From: an uncultured Gemmatimonadaceae bacterium
GTDB taxonomy: Bacteria > Gemmatimonadota > Gemmatimonadetes > Gemmatimonadales > Gemmatimonadaceae
Assembly (NCBI GenBank): GCA_963740355.1
Contig: CAVUDW010000002.1
Location: 2,112,001 to 2,176,000 of the forward strand
DNA length: 64,000 nucleotides
Direction: 5' to 3'
Positions within the stretch are counted from its first letter, which is position 1, and each line of letters starts with the position of its first letter. Made by a program: the position numbers and the translations under genes. Under the pieces are notes generated by a model. It saw nothing but the letters and a program-made list of their open reading frames with translations. It searched no databases and had not been told where the DNA came from. Positions 43,980 to 61,797 of the stretch are shown here, in pieces.

Positions 43980-44342
43980 ATGAGTCATCGCGTTCTGGTG
44001 TGTGACGACGCTCTCTTCATGCGTACGCTCGTCGGCGACATCCTGCAGCAGGCAGGCTTCTCCGTCTGTGGCCAGGCCGAAACCGGTGCACAGGCCGTCG
44101 CACAGTACAAGGCGCTCAAGCCTGACCTCGTGACCATGGACATCGTCATGCCCGACATGGGTGGCATCGACGCCGTCAAGGAGATCACGAGCTGGGACCC
44201 GAACGCGAAGGTCGTGATGTGCAGCGCGATGGGCCAGCAGGCGCTCGTCAACGAAGCGCTGCAGGCCGGTGCCTCCGATTTCGTCGTCAAGCCGTTCCAG
44301 CCGAACCGCGTCATCGAGGCAGTGCAGCGCGTGCTGGGCTGA
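43980..44342 (+). CDS. cheY: CheY response regulator (Bacillus/Thermotoga-like)
   Basis: CDDALFMR, PDLVTMDIVMP, MCSAMGQ, DFVVKPF. Confidence 0.95.
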   Translation: MSHRVLVCDDALFMRTLVGDILQQAGFSVCGQAETGAQAVAQYKALKPDLVTMDIVMPDMGGIDAVKEITSWDPNAKVVMCSAMGQQALVNEALQAGASDFVVKPFQPNRVIEAVQRVLG

Positions 44343-44381: not shown

Positions 44382-46283
44382 ATGGAGCCGCATCGAATGC
44401 TCACGCTCTTCCTCGCGGAAGGGCGTGAGCTGTTGAATCGGATGGACGCCGAGCTGCTGGTGCTCGAGCGATCACCCGATGCGCGTGGTGCGCTCGATGC
44501 CGTGTTTCGTGCGGCGCATTCGCTCAAGGGCATGAGCGCCACCGTCGCGCTCAACGACACCGCTGCCGCGCTGCATGCCGGCGAGTCACTTCTCGCTGCA
44601 GCCCGTGACAGTGGCCAGCTCGATGCGGGGCAACTCCGCGCATTGCTAGCGCTGATCGACGGCACGCGACGAGCGCTCGACGATGCTGAGCAGGGCTCGA
44701 TGCAGTCACCGTCGATGCGAGAACTCGCGGCTGAACTGGAGGCGCTCGTGCCCCGAGTGCCGGCCACGGGTGCGCCGGATCGGCTCCGTGCCTCACGCGT
44801 CGTGCAGCGTGCGACAACCGCCGTTGGCGCACGCTGGAGGGTCGACGTCGTGATCGACGCCGATGCCGCCATTCCGCAGGCGCGCGCCACCATCGTGCTG
44901 CGCAAGCTCTCGGCGCTGGCCTCGGTCGTCGCGGTGGTACCGGATGCCGACACACGCGCAGCCGACGATTGGGATCGGGCGTTCACCGTCTGGCTTGGCG
45001 ATGCGACCGCGGGATCGCCGGCGCCCCTCGATGCGGCAGCACTCGAAAACGCGACCCGCAGCGCGGGGGACATCGCCGAGTGCCACGTGGCGCGCGAGGT
45101 TGCAGCGGCGGCGGACGTCGGTGAGGCGACTGCCGCGCGCACGGTACGCATTCCGGCACAGCGCCTCGACGACCTGCTGGACCTGGTTGGAGAACTCGTG
45201 CTCGCGCGTGATCGACTGCTCCGAACCGTGGCACCGACCGCCGACGACGCCGGACAGCGCGCGCTGGACGACACCTCGCGCCTGATCATGCAGCTGCGCG
45301 ATGCCATCCTCACCAGTCGCATGGTGCCGTTGGCGCAGGTCTTCGATCGATTCCCGCGGCATGTTCGCGACACTGCGCATGCACTCGGCAAGGAGATCGA
45401 CCTCGTGCTCGAGGGTCGCGAGCTGGAAGTTGATCGATCACTGCTCGATGAACTGAGCGATCCGATCCTCCATCTGCTGCGTAATGCAGTCGATCATGGA
45501 CTCGAATCCCCAGATGACCGCCGGCTGGCGGGCAAGAGCGCGCGCGGCCGACTGGTCGTGCGTGCCGTGCGCGATGGATCGATGGTCGCGGTGACCGTGG
45601 CGGACGATGGCCGCGGTGTGGATCGCGATCGTGTCGCGGCGTCGGCTGCGGCGCAGGGCGTCGCCGGCGCAGCGGCACTGGCGCAGGATGACGGGGGCCT
45701 GCTGCAACTGCTGGCGCGTCCTGGCCTCAGCACCGCAGCCACCGTCACCGCGCTCTCGGGCCGCGGTGTGGGTGTGGACGCGGTGCTCAGTCGCGTGCAG
45801 GCGCTCGGTGGCCGCCTGGAACTCGCGACTGCGGCGGGTGAGGGCACCGCGATCACCATCCGACTTCCGCTGAGCGTCGCGATGCTGCGGGCACTGCTGG
45901 TGCGTGTTGCCGACGAGACGTACGCCATCCCGCTCACGATGGTGCAGGCGACGCACCTCGGCGACACGCTCCACGCGACAGATCGGCATGACCCGCGCGC
46001 GCCGCTTCCAGAGGATGTGGAGATCGCTGGAACGCGACTGCGCTTGGTGAGCTTGCGCTCACATCTTGGCCTGCCCCCGCGGGATGACGTTTCGGGTCAT
46101 CTGGTCGTCCTTGATGGTGCCACAGGTCGTGTGGCCTTGCTCGTGGACACCTGTGTGTCCCAGCAGGAGATCGTCGTCAAGCCGCTGCAACGCGTCCGCG
46201 GCTCGGCCTCGATGTTCAGCGGGGGCACGATCCTTCCCGACGGAACACCGTCGCTCATTCTGGACATCAACACGCTGCCCTGA
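44382..46283 (+). CDS. cheA: CheA histidine kinase
   Basis: Hpt FRAAHSLKG, P2-like region, LDDLLDLVGELV, HLLRNAVDHG, DDGRG, SGRGVG, C-terminal CheW domain. Confidence 0.95.
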   Translation: MEPHRMLTLFLAEGRELLNRMDAELLVLERSPDARGALDAVFRAAHSLKGMSATVALNDTAAALHAGESLLAAARDSGQLDAGQLRALLALIDGTRRALDDAEQGSMQSPSMRELAAELEALVPRVPATGAPDRLRASRVVQRATTAVGARWRVDVVIDADAAIPQARATIVLRKLSALASVVAVVPDADTRAADDWDRAFTVWLGDATAGSPAPLDAAALENATRSAGDIAECHVAREVAAAADVGEATAARTVRIPAQRLDDLLDLVGELVLARDRLLRTVAPTADDAGQRALDDTSRLIMQLRDAILTSRMVPLAQVFDRFPRHVRDTAHALGKEIDLVLEGRELEVDRSLLDELSDPILHLLRNAVDHGLESPDDRRLAGKSARGRLVVRAVRDGSMVAVTVADDGRGVDRDRVAASAAAQGVAGAAALAQDDGGLLQLLARPGLSTAATVTALSGRGVGVDAVLSRVQALGGRLELATAAGEGTAITIRLPLSVAMLRALLVRVADETYAIPLTMVQATHLGDTLHATDRHDPRAPLPEDVEIAGTRLRLVSLRSHLGLPPRDDVSGHLVVLDGATGRVALLVDTCVSQQEIVVKPLQRVRGSASMFSGGTILPDGTPSLILDINTLP

Positions 46284-46915
46284 TGCTGGCTATCCGCGAT
46301 GTGCGTAGTCTGAACGCCGAGCAGCTCGACGCGTTGCGTGAAGTGGCCAACATCGGCGCCGGTCACGCTGCCACTGCGCTCTCGACCATGACCGGGCAAT
46401 CGATCATGATCAAGGTGCCCACGGTCACCATCGCGCGACTGGATGAGGTGCCCGGGCACGTGGTGGCGAATCCTGAGGATGCCGTCGCCGTGGTGCTGCT
46501 GCAGATGCTGGGCGACCTCACCGGTCGCGCCTTGCTCGTCTTTCCCGAGTACACGGCCTGTCGCCTCGCGGAAATGATGTTGCAGCGGCCGCGTGGTTCA
46601 TCGCCGACGATCGCGCTCCTCGAGCAGAGTGCGCTGAAGGAGTGCGGCAACATTCTCAGCGGCGCCTACCTCAATGCGCTCGCAGATTTCATGCACCTGA
46701 TGCTGCTGCCGTCACCGCCGACGCTGGCCGTCGACATGGCCAGCGCCGTGCTCAGCTCCGCTTTCCTGCAGTTCGGCGATGGTCGTGACGTCGTGTTCTG
46801 CGTCGAGAGCGAATTCCAGATGCGCGACGATGGCGAGTCGCTGCGCGGCTACTTCCTGCTCCTGCCCGACATCGGATCGCTGCAGAAGATCCTGCACGCG
46901 GTCAACCGCGCCTGA
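46283..46915 (+). CDS. cheC: CheC phosphatase
   Basis: Two active-site motifs, DALREVANI and SALKECGNI. Confidence 0.93.
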   Translation: MLAIRDVRSLNAEQLDALREVANIGAGHAATALSTMTGQSIMIKVPTVTIARLDEVPGHVVANPEDAVAVVLLQMLGDLTGRALLVFPEYTACRLAEMMLQRPRGSSPTIALLEQSALKECGNILSGAYLNALADFMHLMLLPSPPTLAVDMASAVLSSAFLQFGDGRDVVFCVESEFQMRDDGESLRGYFLLLPDIGSLQKILHAVNRA

Positions 46916-46937
46916 TTTTCGCAGTCCAGAGATTCCT

Positions 46938-49415
46938 ATGTCGGTGACCCCGCAGTCGGTGCCAGTGTTGTCGATCCGTGAGACGGATCGGCTGCGCGCG
47001 ATCGCGCGCCGGGTGCCTGCGGGCAACGCCGGCGCGCAGAACAACTGCGGTGTCATGCTCGCCCGTCGCAGCCTGGCGCATGAAGCCGCGGCCTGCTTCG
47101 AGCGCGCACTCGATGTCGATGCGCGCATGACGCTGGCGGCGCAGAACCTGCAGCAGCTGGCCGCGCGCACCACCGTCGATGCCGAACGCGTCAAGCTGCT
47201 CACGGACACGCTTCGGCAGCAGCCGCACGATGTCGGCACGGCGTTGGCGCTTGGCAAGTGGCACGCGCGCCTCGGTCGACCGGCCGATGCCGCCACCGTC
47301 CTTGGGGAGCTGCTCGACCGGTCACCGGATGACCTGACCGCGCTGCGCGAGATCGCCCTCGTCGAACAGGCGCTGGGCTACCCCGACCGTGCATCGGCGT
47401 GGCTCGACCGCGCGCTTGCGCTCGCGCCGAACGACGTCTCGCTGCACGCACTCTCCGGCGAAATTCTCTATCGCCGCGGCAAGACCGAGGCCGCCAAGCG
47501 CGCGCTCGAGCGTGCACTCGAGATCGACGAGTCGGCCGCCTGGCCGCAGCACCTGCTGGCGTTCGTGCTCGGTGACATGGGGCAGCTGGAGGAGGCGCAG
47601 GCCGCAGCGCAGCGTGCGTTGCAGCTCGATCCCAACCTCGCGCGCGTCGACATGAACCTGACGCTCGACGCGCGGCCGCTGAAGCCAGTGCCGCGCGCCG
47701 CCGGCGACAGCGATGGCCGCGCTCACCTCACCCTCGGCGTGGCCTACCGCAACACCGGCTACTTCGATCAGGCCCTCGCCGAGTTCGAGACGGCACTCAA
47801 TCGCGGTGAACCGGCCTCGCAGGTGTGGACGGCGGTGGCAGAGACGCGGTTGATGCGCGACGAGTGGGCACTGGCCGCCGCGGCATATGCCGACGCGGCC
47901 CGCGCCACGCCAGGCGCCAGCGCACCGCTCGTGGCGCGCGCGGCGGTGTTGGTGCGGAATGGCGATCTCGCGGATGCGCGCCAGGCAATCGAGCAGGCGC
48001 TCGGCTGTGACGGCGACACCGGCAGCGCACAACTGGTGCTCGGCGTGCTCGAGGCGCTCGAACAGCATCCCGTCGAGGCCCTCACGGCATTCCAGCGTGT
48101 GCGCGGGACGTCACGCGTGGAACTCGCTGCACGACTGAACGCGGCCTGGGTGATGCGACAGCTCGGCAGGCATGCGGAGTGCCTCGAAGGATTCCGTCGC
48201 GTTACGGAGGCCGATCCCCAAAATGCGCGCGCGTGGATCGGTGTCGGTGTTGCATTCAGCGAGCTGCGTCGCCTGCACGAAGCCTGCAGTGCCTTCGAGC
48301 GAGCCGTGACGCTGGCGCCGGAAAGTGCTGATGCGGCGTACCACCTCGCCTTCACGCTCTCGCAGCTCGGTCGGTATCAGGATGGTGTGCGTGCGATGAA
48401 GCGTGCCATGAGCTTCGAGGATGAGTTCGCGCCATTCCGGTTCCTGCTCGTACTCGAACCGGAACTGCCGGATTTTGTGCTCGAAGTCGTCGCCAACGAC
48501 GCCGTCACCGGTGACGCCATGGCGCTCATGATGCTCAGTGGAGCGCCGCGTCCGAACGTGACATCCGAGCAGAGCGTCGTGCTCGCGGAGCAGACGCCCG
48601 CACACCCGATGCGTGCCGCACTCGCGCCGATCGCTGACGCGGACAAGAAACGCACGCCACTGGGTGCGTGGGTCGCGCTCCGTCGCGGAGGCACGCCGGT
48701 GTCGCAGACCGGTGTCAATCATCGCGTCACTCGCCGCACGCCGGCGATCCCCTTCGTTCGTGTCACCGGATCCAGCTTGCCGCCGGTGAGTGCACCACGT
48801 GACACCGCGCCGATGCGCGCCGTTGGGCCGTCACCGATCGCACCTGCCATCGTGCGGAGTGCGGAAAGTGCGCTCCGAACCGCGCTGGCCGGCGATCCCG
48901 ATCTGGCACAGGTCCGCGTCGGCCTCGCGGCGTTGCTGCGTGAGGATGGTCGTGTGCAGGACGCGGAGCAGGAGTTGATCCGCGCTTTGGAGAGTGTGCC
49001 GACGTTCCATGATGCCGCACGTGCACTCGCCGAACTGCGCGTCGACATGGGCCGGCCGAGCGACGCCATGCAGGCCTTGGTGCGTCCGCTCCGCGCCAAC
49101 CCGCGTGATGCCGACCTGCTGGTGGCACTGGCGGAAGCGTTGCTCGCGCTTGGCCGCGAAGAGCAGGCGATGTCCGCCATCTCGCGCGGCGCCGCGGTGT
49201 CGCCGGATCACGCCGGTGTACGCACCTTGCAGGGCTATCTCGCGCTGCGTGCGGGACGTGAAGCCGAGGCGATGCAGCACTGGCGCGTGGCTGCAGTCTG
49301 CGCCACTGATGATCGCTGGGGCACACGGGCGCGACTCGCGCTGGCGGAACATGACGACATCGATGTGCCGCAGACGCCGGTCACGCTGGATTCCGTGCGA
49401 CTGGTGAAGGGCTGA
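46938..49415 (+). CDS. Large multi-TPR protein
   Basis: Many TPR signatures (AQNNCGV, AHLTLGVAY, AWIGVGVAF, AAYHLAFTL) separated by a Pro/Arg/Thr-rich linker. Confidence 0.85.
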   Translation: MSVTPQSVPVLSIRETDRLRAIARRVPAGNAGAQNNCGVMLARRSLAHEAAACFERALDVDARMTLAAQNLQQLAARTTVDAERVKLLTDTLRQQPHDVGTALALGKWHARLGRPADAATVLGELLDRSPDDLTALREIALVEQALGYPDRASAWLDRALALAPNDVSLHALSGEILYRRGKTEAAKRALERALEIDESAAWPQHLLAFVLGDMGQLEEAQAAAQRALQLDPNLARVDMNLTLDARPLKPVPRAAGDSDGRAHLTLGVAYRNTGYFDQALAEFETALNRGEPASQVWTAVAETRLMRDEWALAAAAYADAARATPGASAPLVARAAVLVRNGDLADARQAIEQALGCDGDTGSAQLVLGVLEALEQHPVEALTAFQRVRGTSRVELAARLNAAWVMRQLGRHAECLEGFRRVTEADPQNARAWIGVGVAFSELRRLHEACSAFERAVTLAPESADAAYHLAFTLSQLGRYQDGVRAMKRAMSFEDEFAPFRFLLVLEPELPDFVLEVVANDAVTGDAMALMMLSGAPRPNVTSEQSVVLAEQTPAHPMRAALAPIADADKKRTPLGAWVALRRGGTPVSQTGVNHRVTRRTPAIPFVRVTGSSLPPVSAPRDTAPMRAVGPSPIAPAIVRSAESALRTALAGDPDLAQVRVGLAALLREDGRVQDAEQELIRALESVPTFHDAARALAELRVDMGRPSDAMQALVRPLRANPRDADLLVALAEALLALGREEQAMSAISRGAAVSPDHAGVRTLQGYLALRAGREAEAMQHWRVAAVCATDDRWGTRARLALAEHDDIDVPQTPVTLDSVRLVKG

Positions 49416-50557
49416 TGGCACTCGAGGGCGCACTCCGCGATCTGGGCCTCGCTGAAGTGATTCAGCTGCTGGCTGGCGGACGACGCACGGGCGCACTGCG
49501 CGTCTCCGGCGGTGCTGGCGCGCGCGGCGCCATCCTGCGCTTCGTCGATGGCGCGATCGCGGCAGCGCGGTGGGATGATGAGCCCGAACCGTTGCTCAGC
49601 GCCTTGTCGCAGTCAGGCCAGATCGACGCCGATGATCGCAGTGCGGCGGCGCGGTGGGCCAGCGAGCAGTCGCCGCCACGATCCTTGGTCGATGGGCTGG
49701 TCGAAACCGGGTGCATCACCACGCGCACACGCGACACGGTTGCACGACGGCTCATCGATGATCTCTGCTTCGAGCTCACCACGTTCGCCGAAGGCACCTT
49801 CTCGTTCAACGACGGCGAGAAGGCGAGTGCATTGGAACCCACCACCAATCTCAACCTCTCCGGCGAAGAACTCTTCCTCGATGCCGCTCGCCGGCGCGAT
49901 GAATGGCCGGCGATCGAATCGCGAATCGGGTCGCTCGGCGCCGTGCCGGTGGTCTGTGATTGTGATGCCGACGGTGAGCTGGCGGTGCCGGCCGACGGGT
50001 GGCGCGTGCTGTCGTGTGTGGATGGCTGTCGCACCGTGCGCCAGGTGGCCTCTGCCGCCGGCATGCGGGTGTTCGAGACCGCGCGCTGGATATCGCGCTG
50101 GACTGCACTCGGCGCACTCACCACCGACGCGCGCGCCACCACGGCCGAGGATGGCGATGCGATGGCTGGCGTGGCGCAACTCACCGCGCAGGCGCGCCGT
50201 GCCTTGGCGGAGTCGCGGTTCGAGGTGGCCCTCGCTGCGGCCCGAACCGCGATTGGTCATGCGCCGCGCAGCGCCGCCGCCCACGTCCTCGCGGGTCGCG
50301 CACTGCTCGGCCTCGGGCGCACCGAGGACTGGGCCGAGGAGGTCCGCGTCGCGGTGCAGCTGGACCCGCTCCTTCCCGAGGCGCAGGAGCAGTATGGGTA
50401 CGTGGCGGCACGGAAGGGCGAATACGCTGCCGCACTGAACGCGTGGGAGCACTATCTTGAGGCAGCACCGACTGCGCCGGACGCGGCCAGGGTGCGAATC
50501 GCTCGCGATGCTGCGGCGCAACTCCAGGAACTGATCTCCGCACATGCCGGCAGCTGA
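49415..50557 (+). CDS. DUF4388 (PATAN-like) domain plus TPR protein
   Basis: MALEGALRDLGLAEVIQLLAGGRRTGALRV, EGTFSF, LDAARRRDEW, VDGCRTV, C-terminal TPRs. Confidence 0.82.
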   Translation: MALEGALRDLGLAEVIQLLAGGRRTGALRVSGGAGARGAILRFVDGAIAAARWDDEPEPLLSALSQSGQIDADDRSAAARWASEQSPPRSLVDGLVETGCITTRTRDTVARRLIDDLCFELTTFAEGTFSFNDGEKASALEPTTNLNLSGEELFLDAARRRDEWPAIESRIGSLGAVPVVCDCDADGELAVPADGWRVLSCVDGCRTVRQVASAAGMRVFETARWISRWTALGALTTDARATTAEDGDAMAGVAQLTAQARRALAESRFEVALAAARTAIGHAPRSAAAHVLAGRALLGLGRTEDWAEEVRVAVQLDPLLPEAQEQYGYVAARKGEYAAALNAWEHYLEAAPTAPDAARVRIARDAAAQLQELISAHAGS

Positions 50558-51287
50558 CGACATTCGCCGTTGGAGCAACGAACTCGCCACCGACCCGCAA
50601 AGCCTTGCCTTTGCGGACCTCGCCGAGGCGTTGCGCCAGCAGGGAGACCTCGAAACCGCCGAGCGATTGGCGATCCGGGGACTCGAGCGGCACCCCACCC
50701 ACGGTCCGGCGCTCAACGTGCTCGCGCGCATCGCCGAGGCGCGTGGTGATCTGAACGCGGCCGCGGCGTATTGGGAGCGCTCGCGTCAGCACAATCCGAC
50801 GCCTACCTCCGGCGCCGCCAATGGCAGCGCGCCGTCACCACGCACGAACGGGTTCGGTGAGGCCGCCGCCACCGGAGCCAGCCGCGTGACCGGTGCCGCC
50901 TATCCAACGGCCAGTTACGCGGCCGTGCCGAGTTTTTCTGCGACGCTCGCCACCCCTGTCAGCCGACCGGAAGTGGTGCGCTCGCTCGTTGCCGACGCCG
51001 ATGGCCTGCTGCTCGCCAGCCCACAGCCGAGCGATGACATGGCCGTGCTCGAGGCGATGGCGGCCGCAGTCGCCGGCGTGGGGGACGACGCCGCCAGAGC
51101 GATGAAGCACCTCAACCTCGGAACCTGGCACGCGCTGGTGCTGGAAACGGCGGGTGACTCACTCGCCCTCGCTCCGGCACCGGCAGGATCGCTGACGGTC
51201 CTCAGCGTGGCGCCGCATGTGCCGATCGGGCGCGTGCGCGCATTGCTTCGCGTGGCAACGGCGAGAGCCGCTGCCGACGGCTTCTGA
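50544..51287 (+). CDS. TPR plus roadblock/LC7 domain protein
   Basis: DPQSLAFADLAEALRQQGD...GLERHP; C-terminal VRSLVADADGLLLAS...EAMAAAV...LNLG...PIGRVR. Confidence 0.75.
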   Translation: MPAADDIRRWSNELATDPQSLAFADLAEALRQQGDLETAERLAIRGLERHPTHGPALNVLARIAEARGDLNAAAAYWERSRQHNPTPTSGAANGSAPSPRTNGFGEAAATGASRVTGAAYPTASYAAVPSFSATLATPVSRPEVVRSLVADADGLLLASPQPSDDMAVLEAMAAAVAGVGDDAARAMKHLNLGTWHALVLETAGDSLALAPAPAGSLTVLSVAPHVPIGRVRALLRVATARAAADGF

Positions 51288-51298
51288 GAGACCACGCC

Positions 51299-51643
51299 AT
51301 GGCGCAATACGACCTCGTGGTCGATGAACTGATGCACACCGCCGGTGTGCACGCCGCACTGATCGTCTCGCGTGCAGACGGCATCGTGGTGGATGGAAAC
51401 GTGCACATCGGGACCGACGCCGATGCCATCGCTGCCCTCGCCGCTCGCCTCTACGGCCGCGCGGCGCAGGCGGCGACCGCAGCAGACGGGACCGAGCCGG
51501 GATTTCTGCACCTCGAAGGCGAGCGGGGCAGGGTCTGCTGTGTGCCGCAAGGCGACCTGCTGCTGGTCACGGTGGCAGAACCATGGGCGAACCTCGGCCT
51601 GCTCCGCCTCACCATGCGGCGGCTCGCGCAGAGCCTCGGCTGA
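51299..51643 (+). CDS. Roadblock/LC7 (MglB-like) protein
   Basis: GVHAALIVSRADGIVV, DAIAALAA, LEGERG, ANLGLLRL. Confidence 0.85.
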   Translation: MAQYDLVVDELMHTAGVHAALIVSRADGIVVDGNVHIGTDADAIAALAARLYGRAAQAATAADGTEPGFLHLEGERGRVCCVPQGDLLLVTVAEPWANLGLLRLTMRRLAQSLG

Positions 51644-51833: not shown

Positions 51834-53753
51834 ATGAAACTCGATCAACGCCTCCGCTTCGATACCTTCGTCACAGGCTCGTCCAATCGCCTCGCTGTCG
51901 CCGCTGCCAAAGCGGTGGCCGATGCGCCAGGCGTCCTGTACAACCCGCTGTTTGTGTACGGCGCGTCTGGCCTCGGCAAGACGCACCTGATGCATGCGGT
52001 GGGCCACTCCGCCAAGGACAAGCAACCGTCCCTTGGCGTCGAGTACGTCGCGCTCGACGACTACATGGAGGAATTCCATCAGGCGTTGCAGGGCGGTCGA
52101 CTGGACACCTTCAAGAAGCGATACGAGTCCGCCGGCGTCCTGCTCCTCGACGACGTGCAGTTCCTTACGGGGCGCGCAGAGGTGCAGGGTGAATTGCTGC
52201 GCCTGTTCAACGTGCTCCAGGGACGCGGCACGCAGATCGTGATGACCAGTGATCGGCCACCCGATGAGATCACCGATGTCGCCGACCGATTGCTCACGCG
52301 CCTCACCGGCGGGCTGATCGTCGATGTCGGCATCCCGGACTACGAAACGCGTGTGGCCATCCTGCAGAAACTGCAGGGAGAGCGTGCGTCGCGATTCCGC
52401 GATGGTGTGCTCGAGGAACTCGCGCGTGTCGACTTCTCGAACATCCGTGAATTGCAGGGCGGTCTCAATCGGCTGCTCGCGCATCAGGGATTGAGCGACT
52501 CGGCGATCGGCGTCTCCGATGTCCGTCGCCTCGTCGGTGCCCGCGCCACGCCGCTCGCCAACGCGGCCATCTACGGCGAGATCGAGCAACACGAACGCGA
52601 CAACGACACGATCGACTACGACACCTTCGTGCAGGAAGTCGCGACGGCCGTCGTCGAACAGGTCGAGGAGTGGCGCGTTCGACTCGCCGATGCCGCCGCA
52701 CGGTGGCGCGCCGAGGGCATCAGTGTTGCCGTCCTCGATCGTGCGCTGCAACTGCGCGAGGCGCCGGACGTGGAGGGATTGCTGGCGACGTTCGGTGCTG
52801 CCGTCGAATACCTGCGCGATCTCGAGCGCCAGGGTTCCGCCGCCGATACCACGCTGTCTGGGCATGCGATCTTCCGTGATCCGGAGCGTGTGAAGGAAGC
52901 GCATGCACTGGTGCAGCAGGCCGTCTCGTCGATCGAGCCGCCACCACGCCCAGATCCGGCCTTCATCTTCGGCACCCTGCACGAGGGACGGGCCAACCAG
53001 CTCGCACTCCGCGCAGCACGCGCCGTTGTCGAGGCGCCGGGTACGCAGTACGTCCCCCTCGTCATCACCGGCCCATCGGGCAGCGGCCGTACGCACTTGC
53101 TGCATGCCATCGGCAATGCACTGATCGACGCTGGAGTGCAGACGGTCGCCTGTGTCTCCGCGGCCACGTTCGCCGAACAGCTCATCACCGCGCTGCGCGA
53201 AGGTGCGGTCGAGAAGTGGCGCGCGCGGTACCGCAATGCTGGCGCACTGCTTCTCGATGACATCGAGGCGGTGGCGGGCAAGGAACGCACGCAAGACGAA
53301 CTCTTCCACCTGTTCAATGCGTTGCAGAGCGCAGGACGACAGGTGGTGCTGACGTCGAGTGTCCCACCGAACCAGCTCGCAACGCTCGAGGACCGACTGC
53401 GGACACGATTCGCGCAGGGCCTGATCGTGGAGCTTGGCAGCCCGGACACCGCACAGCGCGTGGCCGTCATCACCAGCGTCTTCCACGCCCATCATGCGCG
53501 CGTCGATGACGCCGTGGTGGCCCAGCTCTCGGATCGTCCCGCGCGGTCGATTGGCGACGTGATTGCCACCGCACGTCGATTGCACGCTGCCGCGACACTT
53601 GCCAACGCGCCCATTACCGCAGCCTTCGTGGCAGCGGAGTTGGACGGTGCCGTCGCACCGCGCCGCGGACTGAAACACCTCATGGGTGACCCGGAGAATT
53701 TCGTGCATCGCTGGCCCGACCTCACGGCGCGTCTCAGCGAGGACGCTGACTGA
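51834..53753 (+). CDS. Tandem DnaA/Hda-type AAA+ ATPase without DNA-binding domain
   Basis: Domain 1: FDTFVTGSSNRLA, YNPLFVYGASGLGKTHL, LLLDDVQF, TSDRPP, PDYETRVAIL, SNIRELQG. Domain 2: GRANQLA, YVPLVITGPSGSGRTHL, LLLDDIE, TQDELFHLFNAL, LEDRLRTRF. Confidence 0.88.
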   Translation: MKLDQRLRFDTFVTGSSNRLAVAAAKAVADAPGVLYNPLFVYGASGLGKTHLMHAVGHSAKDKQPSLGVEYVALDDYMEEFHQALQGGRLDTFKKRYESAGVLLLDDVQFLTGRAEVQGELLRLFNVLQGRGTQIVMTSDRPPDEITDVADRLLTRLTGGLIVDVGIPDYETRVAILQKLQGERASRFRDGVLEELARVDFSNIRELQGGLNRLLAHQGLSDSAIGVSDVRRLVGARATPLANAAIYGEIEQHERDNDTIDYDTFVQEVATAVVEQVEEWRVRLADAAARWRAEGISVAVLDRALQLREAPDVEGLLATFGAAVEYLRDLERQGSAADTTLSGHAIFRDPERVKEAHALVQQAVSSIEPPPRPDPAFIFGTLHEGRANQLALRAARAVVEAPGTQYVPLVITGPSGSGRTHLLHAIGNALIDAGVQTVACVSAATFAEQLITALREGAVEKWRARYRNAGALLLDDIEAVAGKERTQDELFHLFNALQSAGRQVVLTSSVPPNQLATLEDRLRTRFAQGLIVELGSPDTAQRVAVITSVFHAHHARVDDAVVAQLSDRPARSIGDVIATARRLHAAATLANAPITAAFVAAELDGAVAPRRGLKHLMGDPENFVHRWPDLTARLSEDAD

Positions 53754-55378
53754 TGGCGATTCGTGGTAGCCTCAAGGAAGCGAGCTTTCCCGATGTGCTC
53801 CAACTGCTGGCACTGGGACAAAAATCCGGGTGTCTCAGCATCGTGGACGGCACGAAGTTCGGCTCGGTGTTCTTCCAGAACGGCAAGATCTCCTTTGCGG
53901 CGATCGTCAATCGACGCGATCGACTTGGCGACTCGCTCGTCAAGCGCGGGCACATCACCAAGGACCAGCTCGAGGATGCACTTCGTGCGCAGCTGACACA
54001 CCCGGGCCGCCGCGTGGGCGAGTTGCTGGTGGAGCTGGGCTTCGTGGCGCGCGAAGTGGTCGAGAAGGAACTGCGATCACTGGTGGAGGACGCGGTGTTC
54101 TCGCTCTTCACCTGGACGCAGGGAATCTGGACCTTCGAGCCCGACGTCCATCCCGATGGTCGTCAGCTCATGACGGCCATCAACCCTGAGTCGCTGCTGA
54201 TGGAAGGCGCGCGACGCACCGACGAGTGGGCGCTCGTCGAGCGACGGTTCCCGACCTTCGATCTCGTCTTCGAGATGGACGCGGCACGTGCAGGCCAGTC
54301 CACGCCGCTGAGCGGCGAGCTGGCCGAGGTCGCGCACCTGCTCGACGGCCGGCGCACCATTCGCGCCGTGATCGAACGCTCCGGCCTCGGTGAGTTCACG
54401 GTCGGCAAGGCGCTCTACGAGTTGGCGATGCAAGGGTTGCTGGTGCAGGTCACCAACGCCGAGACGGTGCGCAGCGACGACTCTGACATCGGCGGCACGA
54501 CGGCCGAGAAGGCGCTCAAGATGGGACTCGCGCTTGCCAAGGCCGGCATGATCGAGGACTCCGCCCGCGAATTCCGTCGTGTCGTCGAAGCCTCGCCCAA
54601 CGATCCGATTGCGCGGCACCAGCTCGGGCTGCTGGCGCTCAAGCAGGGGGAGTGGGACGATGCAGTGGGCTGGCTGGAACCGTTGGCGCAGCTGGACGAT
54701 GCGTCGTCGACGATGCTCCATCATCTGGCTCTCGCGTACGAGGGGCTGGGTCGCGAGCTTGATTCCGCACGCACGCTCGAGCGCGCCGCACGGTCGGGTG
54801 GGATGTCATCGCCGCAAGTCGAACTGTCGCGCGCGTTGCACGCCTTCCAACTCGGCGACTACGTGCGCGCCGACGCGATGCTCGCTTCCGCCCGCACCCG
54901 GTTCGACGGCGATGCGCCACCGGCCGTCTGGTTTCACTACGCGTCTCTGGTGGCCGCGGCGCGCGATGATGCCGATCAGGCGCAAGCGCTGCTCGAGGAA
55001 GGGATTCGCACACATCCCTCGGTCGGTGTGCTGCACGCCAACTACGCGGCACTGTTGCTCACACGCGGCGCGCTGACGGCGGCTGCGGCAGCTGTGGAGC
55101 GCGGGATGCTGCACGCCGCCAATCTCGCGCCGTTCCAGAAGACGGTCGGCGACCTCGCGTATCGTGTCGCGCGTTTCGACGATGCCATGGAAGCGTATCA
55201 GCGCGCCGTGCGGCTCGAACCGTCACTCGGTCCAGATGTGTACCTGAAGCTCGGTGAATTGCGGTACCAGCGCGGTGAGACACTTGAATCGCAGCGTTGC
55301 TGGCAACGCGTGCTCGAACTCGATCCAGGCAATCGTCAGGCGCAAGTCAGCCTCGATGCCATTCGACGTGCCTCATGA
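53753..55378 (+). CDS. DUF4388 (PATAN-like) domain with MshEN-type insert plus TPR repeats
   Basis: MAIRGSLKEASFPDVLQLL, RLGDSLVKRGHITKDQLEDALRAQ, LLMEGARRTDEW, LDGRRTI, TPRs. Confidence 0.85.
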   Translation: MAIRGSLKEASFPDVLQLLALGQKSGCLSIVDGTKFGSVFFQNGKISFAAIVNRRDRLGDSLVKRGHITKDQLEDALRAQLTHPGRRVGELLVELGFVAREVVEKELRSLVEDAVFSLFTWTQGIWTFEPDVHPDGRQLMTAINPESLLMEGARRTDEWALVERRFPTFDLVFEMDAARAGQSTPLSGELAEVAHLLDGRRTIRAVIERSGLGEFTVGKALYELAMQGLLVQVTNAETVRSDDSDIGGTTAEKALKMGLALAKAGMIEDSAREFRRVVEASPNDPIARHQLGLLALKQGEWDDAVGWLEPLAQLDDASSTMLHHLALAYEGLGRELDSARTLERAARSGGMSSPQVELSRALHAFQLGDYVRADAMLASARTRFDGDAPPAVWFHYASLVAAARDDADQAQALLEEGIRTHPSVGVLHANYAALLLTRGALTAAAAAVERGMLHAANLAPFQKTVGDLAYRVARFDDAMEAYQRAVRLEPSLGPDVYLKLGELRYQRGETLESQRCWQRVLELDPGNRQAQVSLDAIRRAS

Positions 55379-55903
55379 CCGCGCTGGCGGCGCCGCCGTA
55401 CGCGCCTGACTCGCGCGCGACAGTCGAGGCCGACGTGCTGACTGTCGTGATGGGCAAGGCTGGTGTCGCGCATGAAGGCACGCTGTTGCGAACCGTTGGC
55501 CTGGGATCATGCGTCGCCGTGATCATCTTCGCGCCGCAGCAGCGCCTTGCTGGCCTCGCGCACTGCATGTTGCCTGATCGCGAGGACGCGGATGACCCGC
55601 CGTCGCGATTCGTCGACACCGCCGTGCCCGCGCTGATCGACGAACTGCAGGCCGCAGGGAGCATCCGCGCCGTACGCTGCGGCACTGGTCGGCGGCGCCT
55701 CGATGTTTCCCGGCGTGTCCACCGGGTTCGTGCGCGACATCGCCGGAAGCAATCTCGAACGTGCGCGTGCCGCGCTGGCCGCCGCCGCCGTGCCGGTTCG
55801 TGTCGAAGACGTCGGTGGCAGCGAGGGACGCTCGGTGCTCGTCGATCCCGCCACCCAACGCGTCCGGGTGCATACGATGCGCGGTGGCGACCGGTGGCTG
55901 TGA
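55375..55903 (+). pseudogene. cheD: CheD deamidase with a 1-nt frameshift (possibly a sequencing error)
   Basis: LRTVGLGSCVAV, GLAHCMLP, RFVDTAV, then in another frame LVGGASMF, EDVGGSEGRSV. Deleting one G at 55657-55659 gives 175 aa. Confidence 0.85.
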
Positions 55904-56003: not shown

Positions 56004-57104
56004 GTGACGATCCTGCCCCCCTCAGCGGAAGACGTGCTGAGCCCCCTGCGTGCGCAGGTGGACGATCTCGCGCGCGACCTCACCACCGACGCCGCAGCGG
56101 CGGACCACGGTGTCCTGCTCAAGCAGCGCATCTTCCTGCTCCACCGCGCCGTGGAACAGCACGCACAGCTGATCGAGCAGTTGCAGGGTGAAGTCCGCTC
56201 GCTCGTCGATGGCTGGAAGGGGCGGTTTGCGTCGGGCGGCGGCTCGTCGCTCACCCCGCTCAGTTCGGCGGCCATTTCGTCGACGCCAAGGGCGCCGGCA
56301 GCACCCGCCGCCGCGCCGACCCAGAGCCGGACCGCAGCGCCGTCGGCCACCGCTGTCGTCGCGGTGCCGGAGCCCCCTCCGACCGCTGTCGCTGCCACCG
56401 TACCCGCGCCAACGCCGGCCGTCGAACACACCAACGGATTCGCGACCGGGGCCTCGCGTACGCAGATGCCCATGGCCGTGCCAGGCCAGCCGCGCGTGAT
56501 CGACGAGTTGAACGCATCGACCTTCGTGGAGCGCGGCTGGAGTCGGATCGCGACCGGCGACTACATCGGCGCCGAGGAGGCCCTCGAAAAGGCCCTTGCC
56601 CTCAACCCGGGTGACGCGCATGCGGAGACGCTGCTCGGGTGGGCCCAGATGTCGCAAGGGAAGTTCGACTCCGCGATGGCGCTCTTTCAGCAGGTGCTCG
56701 ATCGGGTGCCCGACCACGCCCTCGCGCACATCAACGTCGGCTACGTCCTTTTTCGCCGTCGACAGTTCGATGAGGCCGAAGAGCATCTCGATCGCGCCAT
56801 CGCCCTCGATTCGGATCGAAAGGCGACGTTATACGCGCACTACTATCTGGGGCTGGTGCATTTCGAGCAGCAGCGGTACGCCGAGTCGATCGGTGCCCTG
56901 CTGCGGGCGATCGAGCTGGGTCCGAACCTGATCGAGGCCCGATTCGAGCTGGGCCGGGTACTCTGGTTTGCTGACCGCACCGACGACGCGATCGCCGCGT
57001 GGCGCAAGGGCGCGGAGGTGAACAAGTTCAACCCATGGAGTGCTCGCTGTCGCGATATGCTGGCGACCATCGCCGACGGGGGCGCGCCGACGCGCGTGGC
57101 CTGA
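56004..57104 (+). CDS. Coiled-coil plus TPR protein
   Basis: N-terminal coiled coil, Pro/Ala linker, TPRs (AETLLGWA, AHINVGYV, AHYYLGLV, ARFELGRV). Confidence 0.85.
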   Translation: MTILPPSAEDVLSPLRAQVDDLARDLTTDAAAADHGVLLKQRIFLLHRAVEQHAQLIEQLQGEVRSLVDGWKGRFASGGGSSLTPLSSAAISSTPRAPAAPAAAPTQSRTAAPSATAVVAVPEPPPTAVAATVPAPTPAVEHTNGFATGASRTQMPMAVPGQPRVIDELNASTFVERGWSRIATGDYIGAEEALEKALALNPGDAHAETLLGWAQMSQGKFDSAMALFQQVLDRVPDHALAHINVGYVLFRRRQFDEAEEHLDRAIALDSDRKATLYAHYYLGLVHFEQQRYAESIGALLRAIELGPNLIEARFELGRVLWFADRTDDAIAAWRKGAEVNKFNPWSARCRDMLATIADGGAPTRVA

Positions 57105-58084
57105 GCAGTTTCTGGTGGGCACTGCTGTGGTGCGCGTCGGTACTCGTGGCGTGGGCATCACCGGTCACTGCGGCACCACCCGGTGCCCTCCGTCTCGATC
57201 GCGGCCGCTTCACGGTGGTCCACTACAGTGACGATGCCACGCTGGCGCATGCTGCGCTGAACGCCGCGGCGTCACGCGACACCTTTCCCTGGTTGCCGCG
57301 GGCGTCGACACGGATCGTGATCATGGTCGCGCCCGACGCCGCCACCTTTCGCGAGTGGGCGGGACAGAGTGCGGCCAGCTGGGCGGCAGCGGTCGCGTTT
57401 CCCGACCAGCACCGCGTGGTCGTGCAAGGCGGGAAGGCACCCGCCGACGCCGGAGATCCGACCCAGGTGCTGCGACATGAACTCGCGCACGTCGCCTTGC
57501 ACGACTATCTCGGTGATCTCCCACCGCGATGGTTCGACGAGGGCTACGCCAGCTTTGCTGCGGGCGAGGAGCGCATGGATGGCTTCGTCTCGACGAACCT
57601 CGCGCTGGTGTTCAGAGGGATGCCAGCACTGGCTACGCTCGACACGATGATCGGCAGCCCGCGTCCCACGGAGGCGCGCGCCGGCTACGCGCTCGCCCTG
57701 CGCGCCGTCTCCGACCTCGCCGCCATCGACACGCAGCGCGGTCTCGGGCCGATGTTCGTCGCGTGGAAGGAGCGCGGCAGTCTCGACCTCGCCATGCGAC
57801 GCGCGTTCGCGCTCACCTCGGATGATTTCCAGCGCGGTTGGCAGCAGCGCGCGCGGTGGCAGTTCGCGTTTCTCGCGCTGGCGGCCGACTCGGCGATCAC
57901 CGGGAGCGTGCTCCTGCTTGGGCTATGGCCGATGTACCGCCGCCGACGGCAGGCCCAGCGAGATCGCCTGGAGGCGATGCGCGAGCGGGAAGCCATCACC
58001 GAGAGCGCTGCCCGGAGTGCTGCCCTCGACGTCCTGCTGCACGCGATCGGGCCTGAGCGACCCCGAGCTGGCCCCGATGCTTGA
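57101..58084 (+). CDS. Peptidase MA-like zinc metalloprotease with C-terminal membrane anchor
   Basis: HELAH...PRWFDEG gluzincin-type motif, hydrophobic N-terminus. Start codon uncertain. Confidence 0.78.
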   Translation: MSSFWWALLWCASVLVAWASPVTAAPPGALRLDRGRFTVVHYSDDATLAHAALNAAASRDTFPWLPRASTRIVIMVAPDAATFREWAGQSAASWAAAVAFPDQHRVVVQGGKAPADAGDPTQVLRHELAHVALHDYLGDLPPRWFDEGYASFAAGEERMDGFVSTNLALVFRGMPALATLDTMIGSPRPTEARAGYALALRAVSDLAAIDTQRGLGPMFVAWKERGSLDLAMRRAFALTSDDFQRGWQQRARWQFAFLALAADSAITGSVLLLGLWPMYRRRRQAQRDRLEAMREREAITESAARSAALDVLLHAIGPERPRAGPDA

Positions 58085-58622: not shown

Positions 58623-60350
58623 GTGAGCGTTCGGATTCCTCAGATCGCGTGGCTCGGTCTCGTCGCCGGTAGCATGTCCTGTGCGCTTGAAGCACAGGTG
58701 GCCCGTGCGCCAGACCCCAATACGCCGCGCATGATGGTGCTGACGTTCCGCACTGCCACGCCGGGCAACTCCGGCGTTCAGGCAGCGGACGCACTGCGCT
58801 CGCGTATGGGCTCTGAAGTCCCGTACAAGCAACTCTGGCAGATCCCGAACACGGAAATCAACGCCGTGCTCGAGGCCTCCGGCTACAAGAAGGACGAACC
58901 ACTCTCGTCCAACGATGCCCGCGAACTCGGCCGTCAGCTCCGTGCGGATGAGTTCGTTCAGGGCTTTGTCCGCCGTGACGGCGAAGCCTGGCGCATCGAA
59001 GCCACGCTGCACCTCGTTCGCGACCCGTCGCTGGCACAGCCGCTGACACTCCAGTCTGCCGCCAAGGCTGGTGACGCTGCCAAGCTCATCGCGGCCGAGC
59101 TCGTCGAGGCCCGCAAGCAGCTGGTGCCGGAACGCGCCTGCGTGAATGCCGCCCGGGACAAGAACTGGGACAAGGCCATGGCGTCGGCGCGCGAAGGGAT
59201 TGCCCTCTTCCCGAAGGCCGTCATCGCCCGTACCTGCCTGCTCAACGCGATGGTCGAGACCAAGGCCACCGACGAAGCACAGCTCGCCATGGCAGAAGAA
59301 ATTCTCGCCATCGATTCGCGCAGCCGCCGTGCATTGTCGATTGCCGGTGACATCTATCGTCGCCGCAACCTCGCCAACCCGAAGGACACCACGAACGCGA
59401 ACAAGATGATTCAGGCCTACACCGGCCTGATCGCTGCCGACCCGACGAACACCCGCCTCGTCGACGACGTCACGAAGGCCATTGCCGGCGCCGGTAACCC
59501 GGGCGTGGCACTGCCGATCATCCGCAAGGCCGTTGAAGAGAATCCGGGCGATGCATCGCTGATGCGCACGCAGTTCCTCGTCGAGCTCGCTGCTCGCGAT
59601 ACCAAGAATGCCATCCGCACGGGCACCGAACTGGCCGCGCTCGACACGGCCATGGCCGACACGAATTACTTCTTCCGCATGGCTGCGGCGTACCAGCAGG
59701 ACAGCCAGCCGGCCAAGGCCGCCGAAGTGATCGCGCAGGGTGTTGCCAAGTTCCCGGAGAGCGCCAGTCTCCTCGTCGTCTCGGCCCAGGCGCAGCGCGC
59801 CGCTGGTCAGACGCAGCAGGCTGTCGAGACCCTGAAGAAGGCACTCACGCTCGATGCCAACGTCGAGCGCGGACAGCTGCAGCTCGCACAGCTGTACAAC
59901 GACCTCAAGCAGCCGGACAGTGCTTACGCCGCGCTGGTTCGTGCCGACAAGGGCGCTGACAGCGTACTCGTGGGTGACGTCGCACTCGACCTTGGCAACA
60001 AGGCGCAGCGTGAAGTCGCAGCGAAGCCCGACGCGACCGACGTCGACTGGACCAACGTCGTCAACTTCCTCACGCTGGCCGACAACAACGCCACCAGCCC
60101 CGAGCGCAAGCAGCAGGCGAAGTTCCTCCTCGGCACCGTGGCGCTGCGTCGTGGTCAGGCGTTGCTCAAGGCGGGCGTCGATGGCAAGAACTGCGCGATG
60201 GTCAAGTCCGCAGGCGAACAGCTGGCGATCGCCCAGGTCAACGTGCCTGCCGGTGGACGTTTCGCTCCGCAGGCCGCTGGCCAGCTGATGCAGGCGCTCG
60301 GCCAGTTGCTGCCGGCGTCGGCCCAGGCCGAAAAGGCGATCTGCAAGTAA
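58623..60350 (+). CDS. Exported TPR-rich protein
   Basis: GGAGG then GTG; signal peptide ending ALEA|Q; helical repeats. Confidence 0.8.
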   Translation: MSVRIPQIAWLGLVAGSMSCALEAQVARAPDPNTPRMMVLTFRTATPGNSGVQAADALRSRMGSEVPYKQLWQIPNTEINAVLEASGYKKDEPLSSNDARELGRQLRADEFVQGFVRRDGEAWRIEATLHLVRDPSLAQPLTLQSAAKAGDAAKLIAAELVEARKQLVPERACVNAARDKNWDKAMASAREGIALFPKAVIARTCLLNAMVETKATDEAQLAMAEEILAIDSRSRRALSIAGDIYRRRNLANPKDTTNANKMIQAYTGLIAADPTNTRLVDDVTKAIAGAGNPGVALPIIRKAVEENPGDASLMRTQFLVELAARDTKNAIRTGTELAALDTAMADTNYFFRMAAAYQQDSQPAKAAEVIAQGVAKFPESASLLVVSAQAQRAAGQTQQAVETLKKALTLDANVERGQLQLAQLYNDLKQPDSAYAALVRADKGADSVLVGDVALDLGNKAQREVAAKPDATDVDWTNVVNFLTLADNNATSPERKQQAKFLLGTVALRRGQALLKAGVDGKNCAMVKSAGEQLAIAQVNVPAGGRFAPQAAGQLMQALGQLLPASAQAEKAICK

Positions 60351-61495: not shown

Positions 61496-61797
61496 CCCCG
61501 CCGCGGCGCAAGGGCCGCACCACCGTCGCGTTGGTATTGCTCGGCGCGTTCGTCGTCGCCTTTTGCATCATCGCTCGTCGCGCCTACGGGCGCGCCCTGC
61601 AGCGTGACCTTGCCGGTATCGAGCGCACACGCACGCAGTTGAGTGGTGAAGTGATTCGTCTCGAAGGAGAGATTCGCACCGCATCCAGCCGCAACCGACT
61701 CGCGCCGCTGGTCGAGTCGACGCTCGGCATGCGTGTCCCGTCCGACACCCAGGTCATCGACCTCCCGCCTGAGGAGGCACCACGTGTCGCTCCGTGA
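61477..61797 (+). CDS. ftsL: Cell division protein FtsL-like
   Basis: Basic N-terminus, TM helix, leucine-zipper, LGMRVP; lies between rsmH and ftsI. Confidence 0.75.
   Translation: MAARRVTPPRRKGRTTVALVLLGAFVVAFCIIARRAYGRALQRDLAGIERTRTQLSGEVIRLEGEIRTASSRNRLAPLVESTLGMRVPSDTQVIDLPPEEAPRVAP

Follow-up and report, generated by a model that had tools for sequence, protein, structure and literature searches.

What does a DnaA-type ATPase do that carries its motor domain twice, is devoid of DNA-recognition parts and is encoded within a chemosensory gene cluster? The question is raised by a gene on a stretch of 64,000 nucleotides (in the following, the window) of an uncultured Gemmatimonadaceae bacterium (assembly GCA_963740355.1, contig CAVUDW010000002.1, positions 2,112,001 to 2,176,000), whose genome (G000) comprises 5 contigs and is 94% complete. 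DnaA domain III is known as the motor that opens the origin and, in Hda, inactivates the initiator. Judging from sequence comparisons, the product of this gene, which we name twin ATPase, belongs to the DnaA (initiator-clade) family of AAA+ proteins without being an initiator. The explanation that we prefer, with a probability of roughly 0.6, is that it serves a chemosensory signalling module of the polarity type as an ATP-dependent switch or scaffold subunit, being held by its C-terminal tail on a PATAN-TPR scaffold, i.e. a protein combining a PATAN (DUF4388) domain with tetratricopeptide repeats (TPR). The architecture of the protein, the order of the genes, the purifying selection and the separate dnaA-dnaN locus follow directly from the computations described below.

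In an AlphaFold model based on 34 sequences of the family (mean predicted local distance difference test, pLDDT, 87.4; predicted template modelling score, pTM, 0.51), the chain consists of five parts: module 1, a disordered stretch, a helical domain, module 2 and a flexible tail. The gene (P0001) and its parts are located as follows:

51834..53753, + strand: twin DnaA-type AAA+ gene, 639 aa, stop-free translation
51834..52541, + strand: module 1 (residues 1-236), DnaA domain III with every canonical motif
52542..52619, + strand: disordered linker (residues 237-262), pLDDT <50
52620..52949, + strand: family-specific helical insert domain (residues 263-372), delimited by alignments; pLDDT >90 over 263-365
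52950..53648, + strand: module 2 (residues 373-605), DnaA domain III with altered Walker A and sensor II
53649..53750, + strand: C-terminal tail (residues 606-639) with the family motif, in the window protein PENFVHRWPDLTARLSEDAD

Pfam matched Bac_DnaA (PF00308) twice, at residues 3-164 and about 375-540 (E 1.2e-100), and detected neither Bac_DnaA_C (PF08299) nor the DnaA N-terminal domain at E<=0.01. The chain begins two residues ahead of domain III and hence has no DnaA domain I. These matches bear out an initial annotation, made from the sequence alone, which had proposed two copies of domain III without domains I and IV; the motifs it quoted for both modules are all present at their places in the translation. 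Module 1 carries Walker A (GASGLGKT, residues 43-50, nt 51960-51983), the DD of Walker B (LLLDD, 103-107), sensor I, box VII (RLLTR, within DRLLTRL, 151-157) and sensor II (NIRELQG, 203-209); its best match in the PDB is DnaA of B. subtilis (8bv3, E about 1e-56). In module 2, the Walker A lysine is replaced by arginine (GPSGSGRT, 413-420, nt 53070-53093) and the sensor II arginine by glycine (RSIGDV, 571-576, nt 53544-53561); the DD of Walker B (LLLDD, 472-476) and the box VII arginines (DRLRTRF, 520-526) are retained.

The region between the modules had been described as a helical linker. This applies to residues 263-365, which form a confidently modelled helical domain, but not to the disordered stretch 237-262 that precedes it. 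In family alignments, the helical insert is marked by the conserved motifs DEFxxFL..WR..RW..EG..LE and FRDPD. Modelled alone, it reached a pLDDT of 85.7; a Foldseek comparison of this model with the PDB gave nothing at E<=0.001, and the best of 48,161 chains compared by VIA-align was EzrA with a Z-score of 5.8 (root mean square deviation 7.7), a value in the common range for helical models. The consensus of the tail in the family is EKxVWxWPxxxxRLIEE, the window version of which reads ENFVHRWPDLTARLSED. Among the defence models of PADLOC, the twin ATPase gave weak generic P-loop matches, and the two PATAN proteins encoded nearby gave none.

A longer open frame beginning with GTG at 51372 was considered and rejected. 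Because this extension overlaps a real Roadblock gene (51299-51643, Robl_LC7 E 3e-12) in a different frame, and because the orthologues of the genus share the ATG at 51834 as their start codon, we assign the start to this ATG.

How closely is the twin ATPase related to the initiator? The genome encodes a canonical DnaA of 466 aa that carries Bac_DnaA_C (G000:C2:18.3-19.7 kb), followed directly by dnaN at 20.0 kb; the pair spans C2:18.3-21 kb and lies 2.14 Mb from the window. In the whole genome, this dnaA is the sole match of PF08299 (C2:19443-19640), and PF00308 matches only it and the two modules of the twin ATPase. When the window was searched for DnaA boxes with <=1 mismatch, none was found near the gene; the single box-like site, at 20468, is 31 kb off, and 3.0 such sites are expected by chance. 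Thus, the initial annotation was right in stating that neither dnaN nor DnaA boxes are nearby and in anticipating a separate dnaA-dnaN locus: Bac_DnaA_C is undetected in the twin ATPase, and another dnaA is present in the genome.

Identity to the DnaA of this genome amounts to 43% for module 1 and 34% for module 2; between the modules, it is 38%. Both modules are homologues of domain III, with PDB matches ranging from E 1e-57 to 1e-38 (comparison structures 8bv3, 8btg, 2z4r, 1l8q/3r8f). They share with DnaA the Walker A and B motifs, sensor I and box VII, and module 1 additionally shares sensor II; compared with the initiator clade in general (DnaA, DnaC/IstB, Orc/Cdc6), module 1 possesses the full motif set and module 2 only part of it. 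The twin ATPase differs from DnaA in combining two modules per chain, in lacking domains I, II and IV, in being encoded in a signalling operon away from dnaN and the origin, and in having acquired the helical insert and a predicted C-terminal docking peptide. In an unrooted tree that was inferred quickly from 80 rows, several of them long-branched, the module 2 sequences fell on one side of a branch (support in the Shimodaira-Hasegawa-like approximate likelihood ratio test, SH-aLRT, 93), module 1 of Gemmatimonadota formed a clade (97), and the DnaA proteins of Gemmatimonadota were placed among other bacterial DnaA proteins. As neither module falls within the sampled radiation of DnaA, the two look like old paralogues, and an origin as a recent copy of the host's dnaA is not favoured. 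Note that the DnaA equivalog model TIGR00362 assigns the protein 470 bits against a cut-off of 343.9 bits; it aligns only over profile positions 103-333 of 437, and the cut-off is passed because the scores of the two modules add up.

A DnaA domain III without DNA-binding domain is also present in Hda/HdaA, and module 2 aligns to the Hda structures 5x06, 3bos and 3sc3 (E about 1e-19 to 1e-20). The initial annotation had offered an Hda-like regulator capping DnaA filaments. According to this proposal, the twin domain III protein would join DnaA-ATP oligomers via the AAA+ interface and the box VII arginines, so that DnaA would be inactivated or blocked and initiation of replication coupled to the signalling cluster and to the division genes in its vicinity. 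The identity of both modules to the genome's DnaA domain III speaks for it, as does the preservation of the box VII arginines in 160 and 163 of 182 family members (first and second module, respectively); moreover, the PF00308 matches leave no other Hda-like gene in the genome. However, Hda, which together with the loaded clamp stimulates the hydrolysis of DnaA-ATP, consists of a single domain III of about 230-250 aa with a beta-clamp-binding motif at its N-terminus, whereas the twin ATPase is a tandem of 639 aa, and its score with the Hda model TIGR03420 is 186.1 bits, under the cut-off of 194.8 bits. At its N-terminus MKLDQRLRFDTF, which the family alignment identifies as the usual lead-in of domain III, no clamp-binding-type motif was seen on reading, without a dedicated motif search, the consensus being the one that we presume for such motifs. 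The placement of both modules outside the sampled DnaA radiation in the quick tree also argues against an Hda-like protein. Further evidence on this proposal comes from the surroundings of the gene, which are occupied by signalling genes:

43980-44342, + strand: cheY
44382-46283, + strand: cheA with its own CheW domain
46283-46915, + strand: cheC/cheX
46779..49415, + strand: large TPR protein (878 aa)
49415..50557, + strand: PATAN1, a DUF4388 and TPR protein
50544..51287, + strand: TPR and Roadblock protein
51299..51643, + strand: Roadblock/LC7 (MglB-like) gene, directly upstream of the twin ATPase gene
53753..55378, + strand: PATAN2 (541 aa), DUF4388 (PATAN) with MshEN-like helical insertion, followed by TPR repeats
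55483..55900, + strand: cheD remnant in two frames, weak CheD Pfam match
56004-57104, + strand: TPR protein
56999-58084, + strand: Peptidase_MA-like protein
58623-60350, + strand: TPR protein; with the two genes listed before it, it makes up the conserved downstream end of the cluster, just before rsmH and ftsI

The whole string from cheY to the last TPR gene is co-directional and flanked by divIVA-PNP-ileS-lspA-rluD and rsmH-ftsI; the TGA of the twin ATPase overlaps the ATG of PATAN2 by one base (TGATG), which would couple the translation of the two genes. For comparison, we used 70 orthologous loci. They represent every genome in which a twin-type match was obtained, apart from G007, where the gene is divided between two contig ends, and from G057 and G097. 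By tblastn, the gene immediately preceding the twin ATPase is an mglA paralogue specific to the cluster in 69 of them, the two alignments ending 0-111 bp from each other; only G116, whose cluster is reduced, lacks it. Likewise, a PATAN-TPR gene is located directly downstream in 69/70 loci, the one miss being due to a contig edge. In a typical relative (L019), the order is cheY-cheA-cheC-TPR-PATAN/TPR-TPR/Roadblock-Roadblock-Roadblock-mglA-twin ATPase, followed by PATAN/TPR-cheR-cheD-cheB-AAA_22-cheW-cheW-TPR-peptidase. No gene for a methyl-accepting chemotaxis protein (MCP) was seen in this string, and the ten MCP genes of G000 are all outside the window. A locus labelled Cloacimonetes reads AAA_22-CheW-CheC-TPR-PATAN-twin ATPase; the link to Che, TPR and PATAN proteins therefore holds across phyla. 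The initial annotation had tied the gene to the neighbouring signalling cluster and had supposed that an initiator-type ATPase is reused beyond origin binding as a covalent two-module unit. Both ideas are supported, the former by the conserved gene order and by the predicted docking to PATAN2 described below.

For an Hda-like regulator, these surroundings cut both ways. The position of the cluster between divIVA-ileS-lspA-rluD and the division genes rsmH-ftsI, in the window as well as in relatives, speaks in its favour. On the other hand, in none of the 70 loci is the twin ATPase beside replication genes; mglA and PATAN-TPR genes flank it instead, and the comparative signals all point toward MglA, PATAN, TPR and Che proteins. 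In addition, several lineages keep the cluster without the ATPase, and no replacement is evident in those that lost it. We thus regard a role in capping or inactivating DnaA as doubtful.

Two side observations concern the genes around the cluster. The FtsI-type penicillin-binding protein encoded at 61733-63811 has a weak C-terminal PASTA match (19.3 bits, below the cut-off of 23.2 bits; E 0.0011). About 40 kb upstream of the cluster, at about 12234-13370 (G000:C2:2124234-2125370), lies a gene for a T2SSE-family (PilB/PilT-like) ATPase, one of seven T2SSE-type matches in G000. A preprint (10.1101/2021.06.11.447907) states that the motor of type IV pili is contacted by PATAN regulators. The cluster may act on a pilus or on motility polarity, but also on polar growth or division, or on replication.

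A system of similar composition is the polarity control of M. xanthus, where Frz acts on MglA/MglB together with response regulators and TPR effectors: a Che pathway, an MglA-type GTPase and Roadblock proteins are shared. In contrast to M. xanthus, the relatives' cluster joins these parts in one operon with the twin ATPase and two PATAN-TPR proteins, and in the window's genus the operon's own mglA is missing. The accessible part of PMC4316618 reports MglA group 1 in Gemmatimonadetes and PATAN genes as occasional neighbours of mglA.

What connects the ATPase to its neighbours? In the single-chain model, the conserved tail comes after a linker of low confidence and is not packed against the protein's own domains. 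Because of this conserved tail of low pLDDT and the TGATG overlap of the two genes, we expected beforehand that it binds to TPR repeats. In a controlled complex prediction, residues 255-639 of the twin ATPase were combined with the 541 aa of PATAN2, for which an alignment of 38 rows was used. The prediction gave a score of 0.75 in 3/3 runs, compared with 0.00 for the best of 3 controls; the partner pLDDT was 77, and the contacts agreed between runs by at least 66%. In a calibration, which is approximate for the custom alignments used here, the 0.75 mark was reached by 116/157 solved complexes and by 2/215 mismatched pairs. The confident part of the predicted interface consists of tail residues 615-625, 627-628 and 630-637 and of TPR residues 293-496 of PATAN2; among the contacting residues, K463, N464, D467, L492 and D495 are invariant or nearly so in 38 sequences. 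On the strength of this model, the tail peptide probably sits in the TPR groove of PATAN2.

Natural variants agree with the docking prediction in two respects, the length of PATAN2 and the retention of the tail. In 68 loci carrying the twin ATPase, PATAN2 is 537-573 aa long. Ten genomes of the same taxonomic family lack a twin-type match; six of these, from three genera, still possess PATAN2, there with open frames of 438-496 aa and matches that end at model positions 462-488. Moreover, G084 encodes a natural single-module form of 407 aa (L195:6542-7765) between mglA and a full PATAN2 of 543 aa. In this form, module 1, which lacks a clear lid, is followed by the insert, an acidic spacer and the intact tail DDEKVVWDWPDAQGRVIEEFR.

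Among the loci without ATPase, we observed mglA directly before the shortened PATAN-TPR gene in L196 (G114) and L198 (G036). In L197 (G072), mglA, the Roadblock genes and the large TPR gene are also lost, and the shorter PATAN-TPR gene is kept.

The predicted arrangement is reminiscent of chaperones. The TPR domains of Hop and CHIP hold the C-terminal EEVD peptides of Hsp70 and Hsp90; by analogy, a flexible acidic C-terminus of an ATPase is predicted here to occupy a TPR groove, which in PATAN2 is lined by conserved Lys, Asn and Asp residues and may be likened to that of Hop or CHIP. There is no sequence relationship, the tail motif EKxVWxWP..RLIEE is longer, and the partner is a PATAN-TPR signalling protein.

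The PATAN domain of PATAN2 is shared with regulators such as PatA and PixG; unlike these, PATAN2 has no receiver domain. Its helical insertion (residues 57-110) contains two copies of a motif similar to the c-di-GMP-binding tandem motif of MshEN receptors, which the available part of PMC5013675 gives as RLGxx(L/V/I)(L/V/I)xxG(L/V/I)(L/V/I)xxxxLxxxLxxQ. PATAN2 of the window departs from this consensus at H67, V88, V103 and L110, the last being the Leu with which its second motif ends in place of Gln. Sensing of cyclic di-GMP (c-di-GMP) by PATAN2 is plausible given this likeness.

In the window's genus, the cluster is trimmed. Only 190 bp separate the Roadblock gene from the twin ATPase in the window; the mglA paralogue and the second Roadblock gene of the relatives are missing, and cheR, cheB, AAA_22 and the two cheW genes, which the relatives have in their cluster, went undetected in the window. 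The cheD sequence aligns to the CheD of a relative in two frames (residues 23-84 at 55483-55662, residues 86-165 at 55661-55900), and the shift near 55661 is a frameshift or a sequencing error. The only MglA gene of G000 (228 aa) belongs to a housekeeping mglB-mglA pair near recR, 750 kb from the cluster (L029, G000:C2:1408896-1412360, open reading frames 991-1485 and 1501-2187, located after recR); its product and the MglA paralogues specific to the cluster in other genomes share 44-53% identity. In the orthologues of the genus, 16/16 loci are mglA-less, and all have GxxGSGR[ST] in module 2, an intact frame and 86-92% identity. The absence of mglA upstream is thus a loss at the level of the genus, and membership in the family stands, given the two modules, the insert, the tail and the PATAN-TPR gene downstream. 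As a side observation, one genome of the genus (G138) contains a second twin ATPase on a short contig (L103, G138:C273), with 54% identity, mglA upstream and Lys in module 2; it may represent contamination (about 5% is reported for this genome) or a second cluster.

The alteration of module 2 is not typical of the family. Across 182 members, both module sites are mostly canonical; the Walker A residue of module 2 is Lys in 118 and Arg in 53, 50 of the latter belonging to the window's clade, and the change of the sensor II Arg to Gly occurs in 49. Consequently, the initial description of one canonical and one altered module, and of a pseudo-dimer with one dead module, is correct for the window's genus but does not hold as a trait of the whole family, where the second Walker A lysine prevails (118/182). 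In this genus, module 1 would probably be the one active site, and module 2 a structural or arginine-donating partner.

The distribution of the lysine raises the possibility of a functional connection to the GTPase. In 69/69 two-module loci preceded by an mglA paralogue, module 2 has the Walker A Lys. G116, which has no mglA paralogue, reads SEEPGSAQ at Walker A and HG at Walker B, so that the module 2 site is degenerate in both Gemmatimonadota lineages without mglA paralogue, i.e. in G116 and in the window's genus. This pattern suggests that the nucleotide cycle of module 2 is tied to the MglA-type GTPase. Taken further, the twin ATPase could serve the cluster's MglA paralogue, e.g. as its effector, as a sensor of nucleotide state or as a factor for exchange or assembly; in the window's genus, which has lost the GTPase, it would then be a leftover with a reduced or changed role. 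Besides the degenerate sites, the immediate vicinity of mglA in 69/70 loci and the fact that G000 keeps only the distant housekeeping pair are in line with such a partnership. Against it stand the Cloacimonetes-labelled locus, which has no mglA within 6 kb, and the selection acting on the gene in the mglA-less genus: with a ratio of nonsynonymous to synonymous substitution rates (dN/dS) of 0.07, purifying selection is so strong that the twin ATPase is not a relic there. Since a role as MglA partner also overlaps with the switch on the PATAN-TPR scaffold and does not replace it, we consider it unlikely as an explanation of its own.

The losses in the cluster also raise the question of whether the gene itself is decaying. 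In that case, the changes in module 2 would belong to the degeneration of an operon from which the mglA paralogue, one Roadblock gene, cheR, cheB, AAA_22 and the two cheW genes have disappeared and in which cheD is frameshifted; the substitutions of the Walker A Lys by Arg and of the sensor II Arg by Gly would fit. The comparison of the window gene with its 16 genus orthologues (16 pairs) indicates otherwise. The dN/dS value of 0.07 for the whole gene is composed of 0.03 for module 1, 0.03 for the helical insert, 0.08 for module 2 and 0.11 for the tail, as opposed to 0.69 for the disordered linker; the folded parts thus have values of 0.03-0.08. The frame is intact in all 16 orthologues at 86-92% identity, and the same two substitutions are fixed throughout the genus, which suggests a settled state of module 2 and not ongoing drift. 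The gene is under strong purifying selection in this genus and is not decaying; a non-functional product is highly improbable.

How, then, might the twin ATPase work as a switch or scaffold subunit? The parts of the signalling module are the Che proteins, the Roadblock/MglB-like proteins, the PATAN-TPR scaffolds and, in most relatives, the MglA paralogue. By analogy with other ATPases of the initiator clade, ATP would be bound between the two modules in a head-to-tail pair, in which one module contributes its box VII arginine to complete the ATP site of the other. The nucleotide state would then set the shape or the oligomeric state of the tethered complex, and this state would gate the output of the PATAN-TPR scaffold.

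Several observations weigh against this explanation. The pTM of 0.51 leaves the mutual placement of the two modules unpredicted in the full AlphaFold model. The docking score expresses the confidence of a model and no measured binding, and it may in part reflect the likeness of the prediction to the many solved complexes in which a short peptide occupies a TPR groove. The ATPase has been lost in some lineages: g5 and g18 (G036, G047, G052, G114) keep the mglA paralogue and PATAN-TPR, and g10 (G072, G074) keeps the PATAN-TPR gene, all without ATPase. The connection between MglA and module 2 stands on two independent losses only; the Cloacimonetes-labelled locus keeps the Lys of module 2 without having an mglA inside 6 kb, and G084 retains mglA but has no module 2 at all. 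Finally, both modules retain DnaA-like oligomerisation motifs, and GKERTQ of module 2 aligns where DnaA of A. aeolicus has K188, R190 and T191, which presumably contact single-stranded DNA; the twin ATPase may hence contact DnaA or single-stranded DNA.

The latter point leads to a combined proposal, in which the twin ATPase would physically bridge a polarity/chemosensory hub and the replication initiator: its tail would be docked on the PATAN-TPR protein, which possibly senses c-di-GMP, and its modules would co-assemble with DnaA-ATP. If this were the case, signals from the cell pole or surface could gate the initiation of replication, or the reverse, and the protein would be a device of a previously undescribed kind for coupling replication and polarity. 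We judge such a bridge to be distinctly unlikely.

How widespread is the family? A word-indexed search returned more than 100 full-length relatives of about 640 aa; those that are named come from Gemmatimonadota and are called "chromosomal replication initiator protein", "DnaA/Hda family protein" or "ATP-binding protein". In an exhaustive search, many representatives of 50%-identity clusters were matched over the full length, down to about 30% identity. Among 120 sampled genomes of the phylum (G057 and G097 included in these tallies), a twin-type match was found in 70/82 genomes of the same order (families f1 18/28, f2 51/53, f3 1/1), in 3/19 genomes of other orders of the class and in 0/19 genomes of other classes. 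Beyond the phylum, species genomes were scanned with P0158, a divergent member, as query. Of the 80 loci obtained, one was a twin ATPase, in a metagenome-assembled genome labelled Candidatus Cloacimonetes (L105), and the other 79 were ordinary dnaA genes. Across the 182 members, the tail residues W627 and P628 are present in 166 and 161, respectively.

Two metagenomic proteins of about 1900-2000 aa (P0166, P0167) have an MshEN domain, which is of the c-di-GMP-binding type, N-terminal of a twin-type architecture: a DnaA module at about 185-345 is followed by about 1250 residues without Pfam match and by a second module near the C-terminus.

The family is undescribed in those parts of the literature on DnaA, MglA/Roadblock, PATAN/DUF4388 and Gemmatimonadetes that were available to us, a body of text outside of which the neighbourhood supplement of PMC4316618 falls. 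The accessible part of that paper names no DnaA-type ATPase among the neighbours of mglA; its supplementary table S2 could list the gene. New are the mglA-less form of the genus with its degenerate module 2 and the selection data, the prediction of tail-TPR docking and its co-variation, and the natural variants with a single module or without ATPase.

These findings have a practical consequence for annotation. Because the twin ATPase scores 470 bits against 343.9 bits on TIGR00362 and "chromosomal replication initiator protein" is among the source names of its relatives, annotation pipelines give genomes of this kind a false second dnaA. With respect to biology, DnaA engines have here been doubled, stripped of their DNA-recognition parts and wired into an operon of GTPase, PATAN, TPR and Che genes, order-wide and in at least one other phylum. 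The predicted placement of the tail peptide in a TPR groove provides a testable docking mechanism, and the variants found in nature, which have two active modules, one dead module, a single module or no ATPase, constitute a series for dissecting it. If the twin ATPase is indeed a switch or scaffold subunit of the signalling module, it would be a case of initiator-type AAA+ switches reused for signalling.

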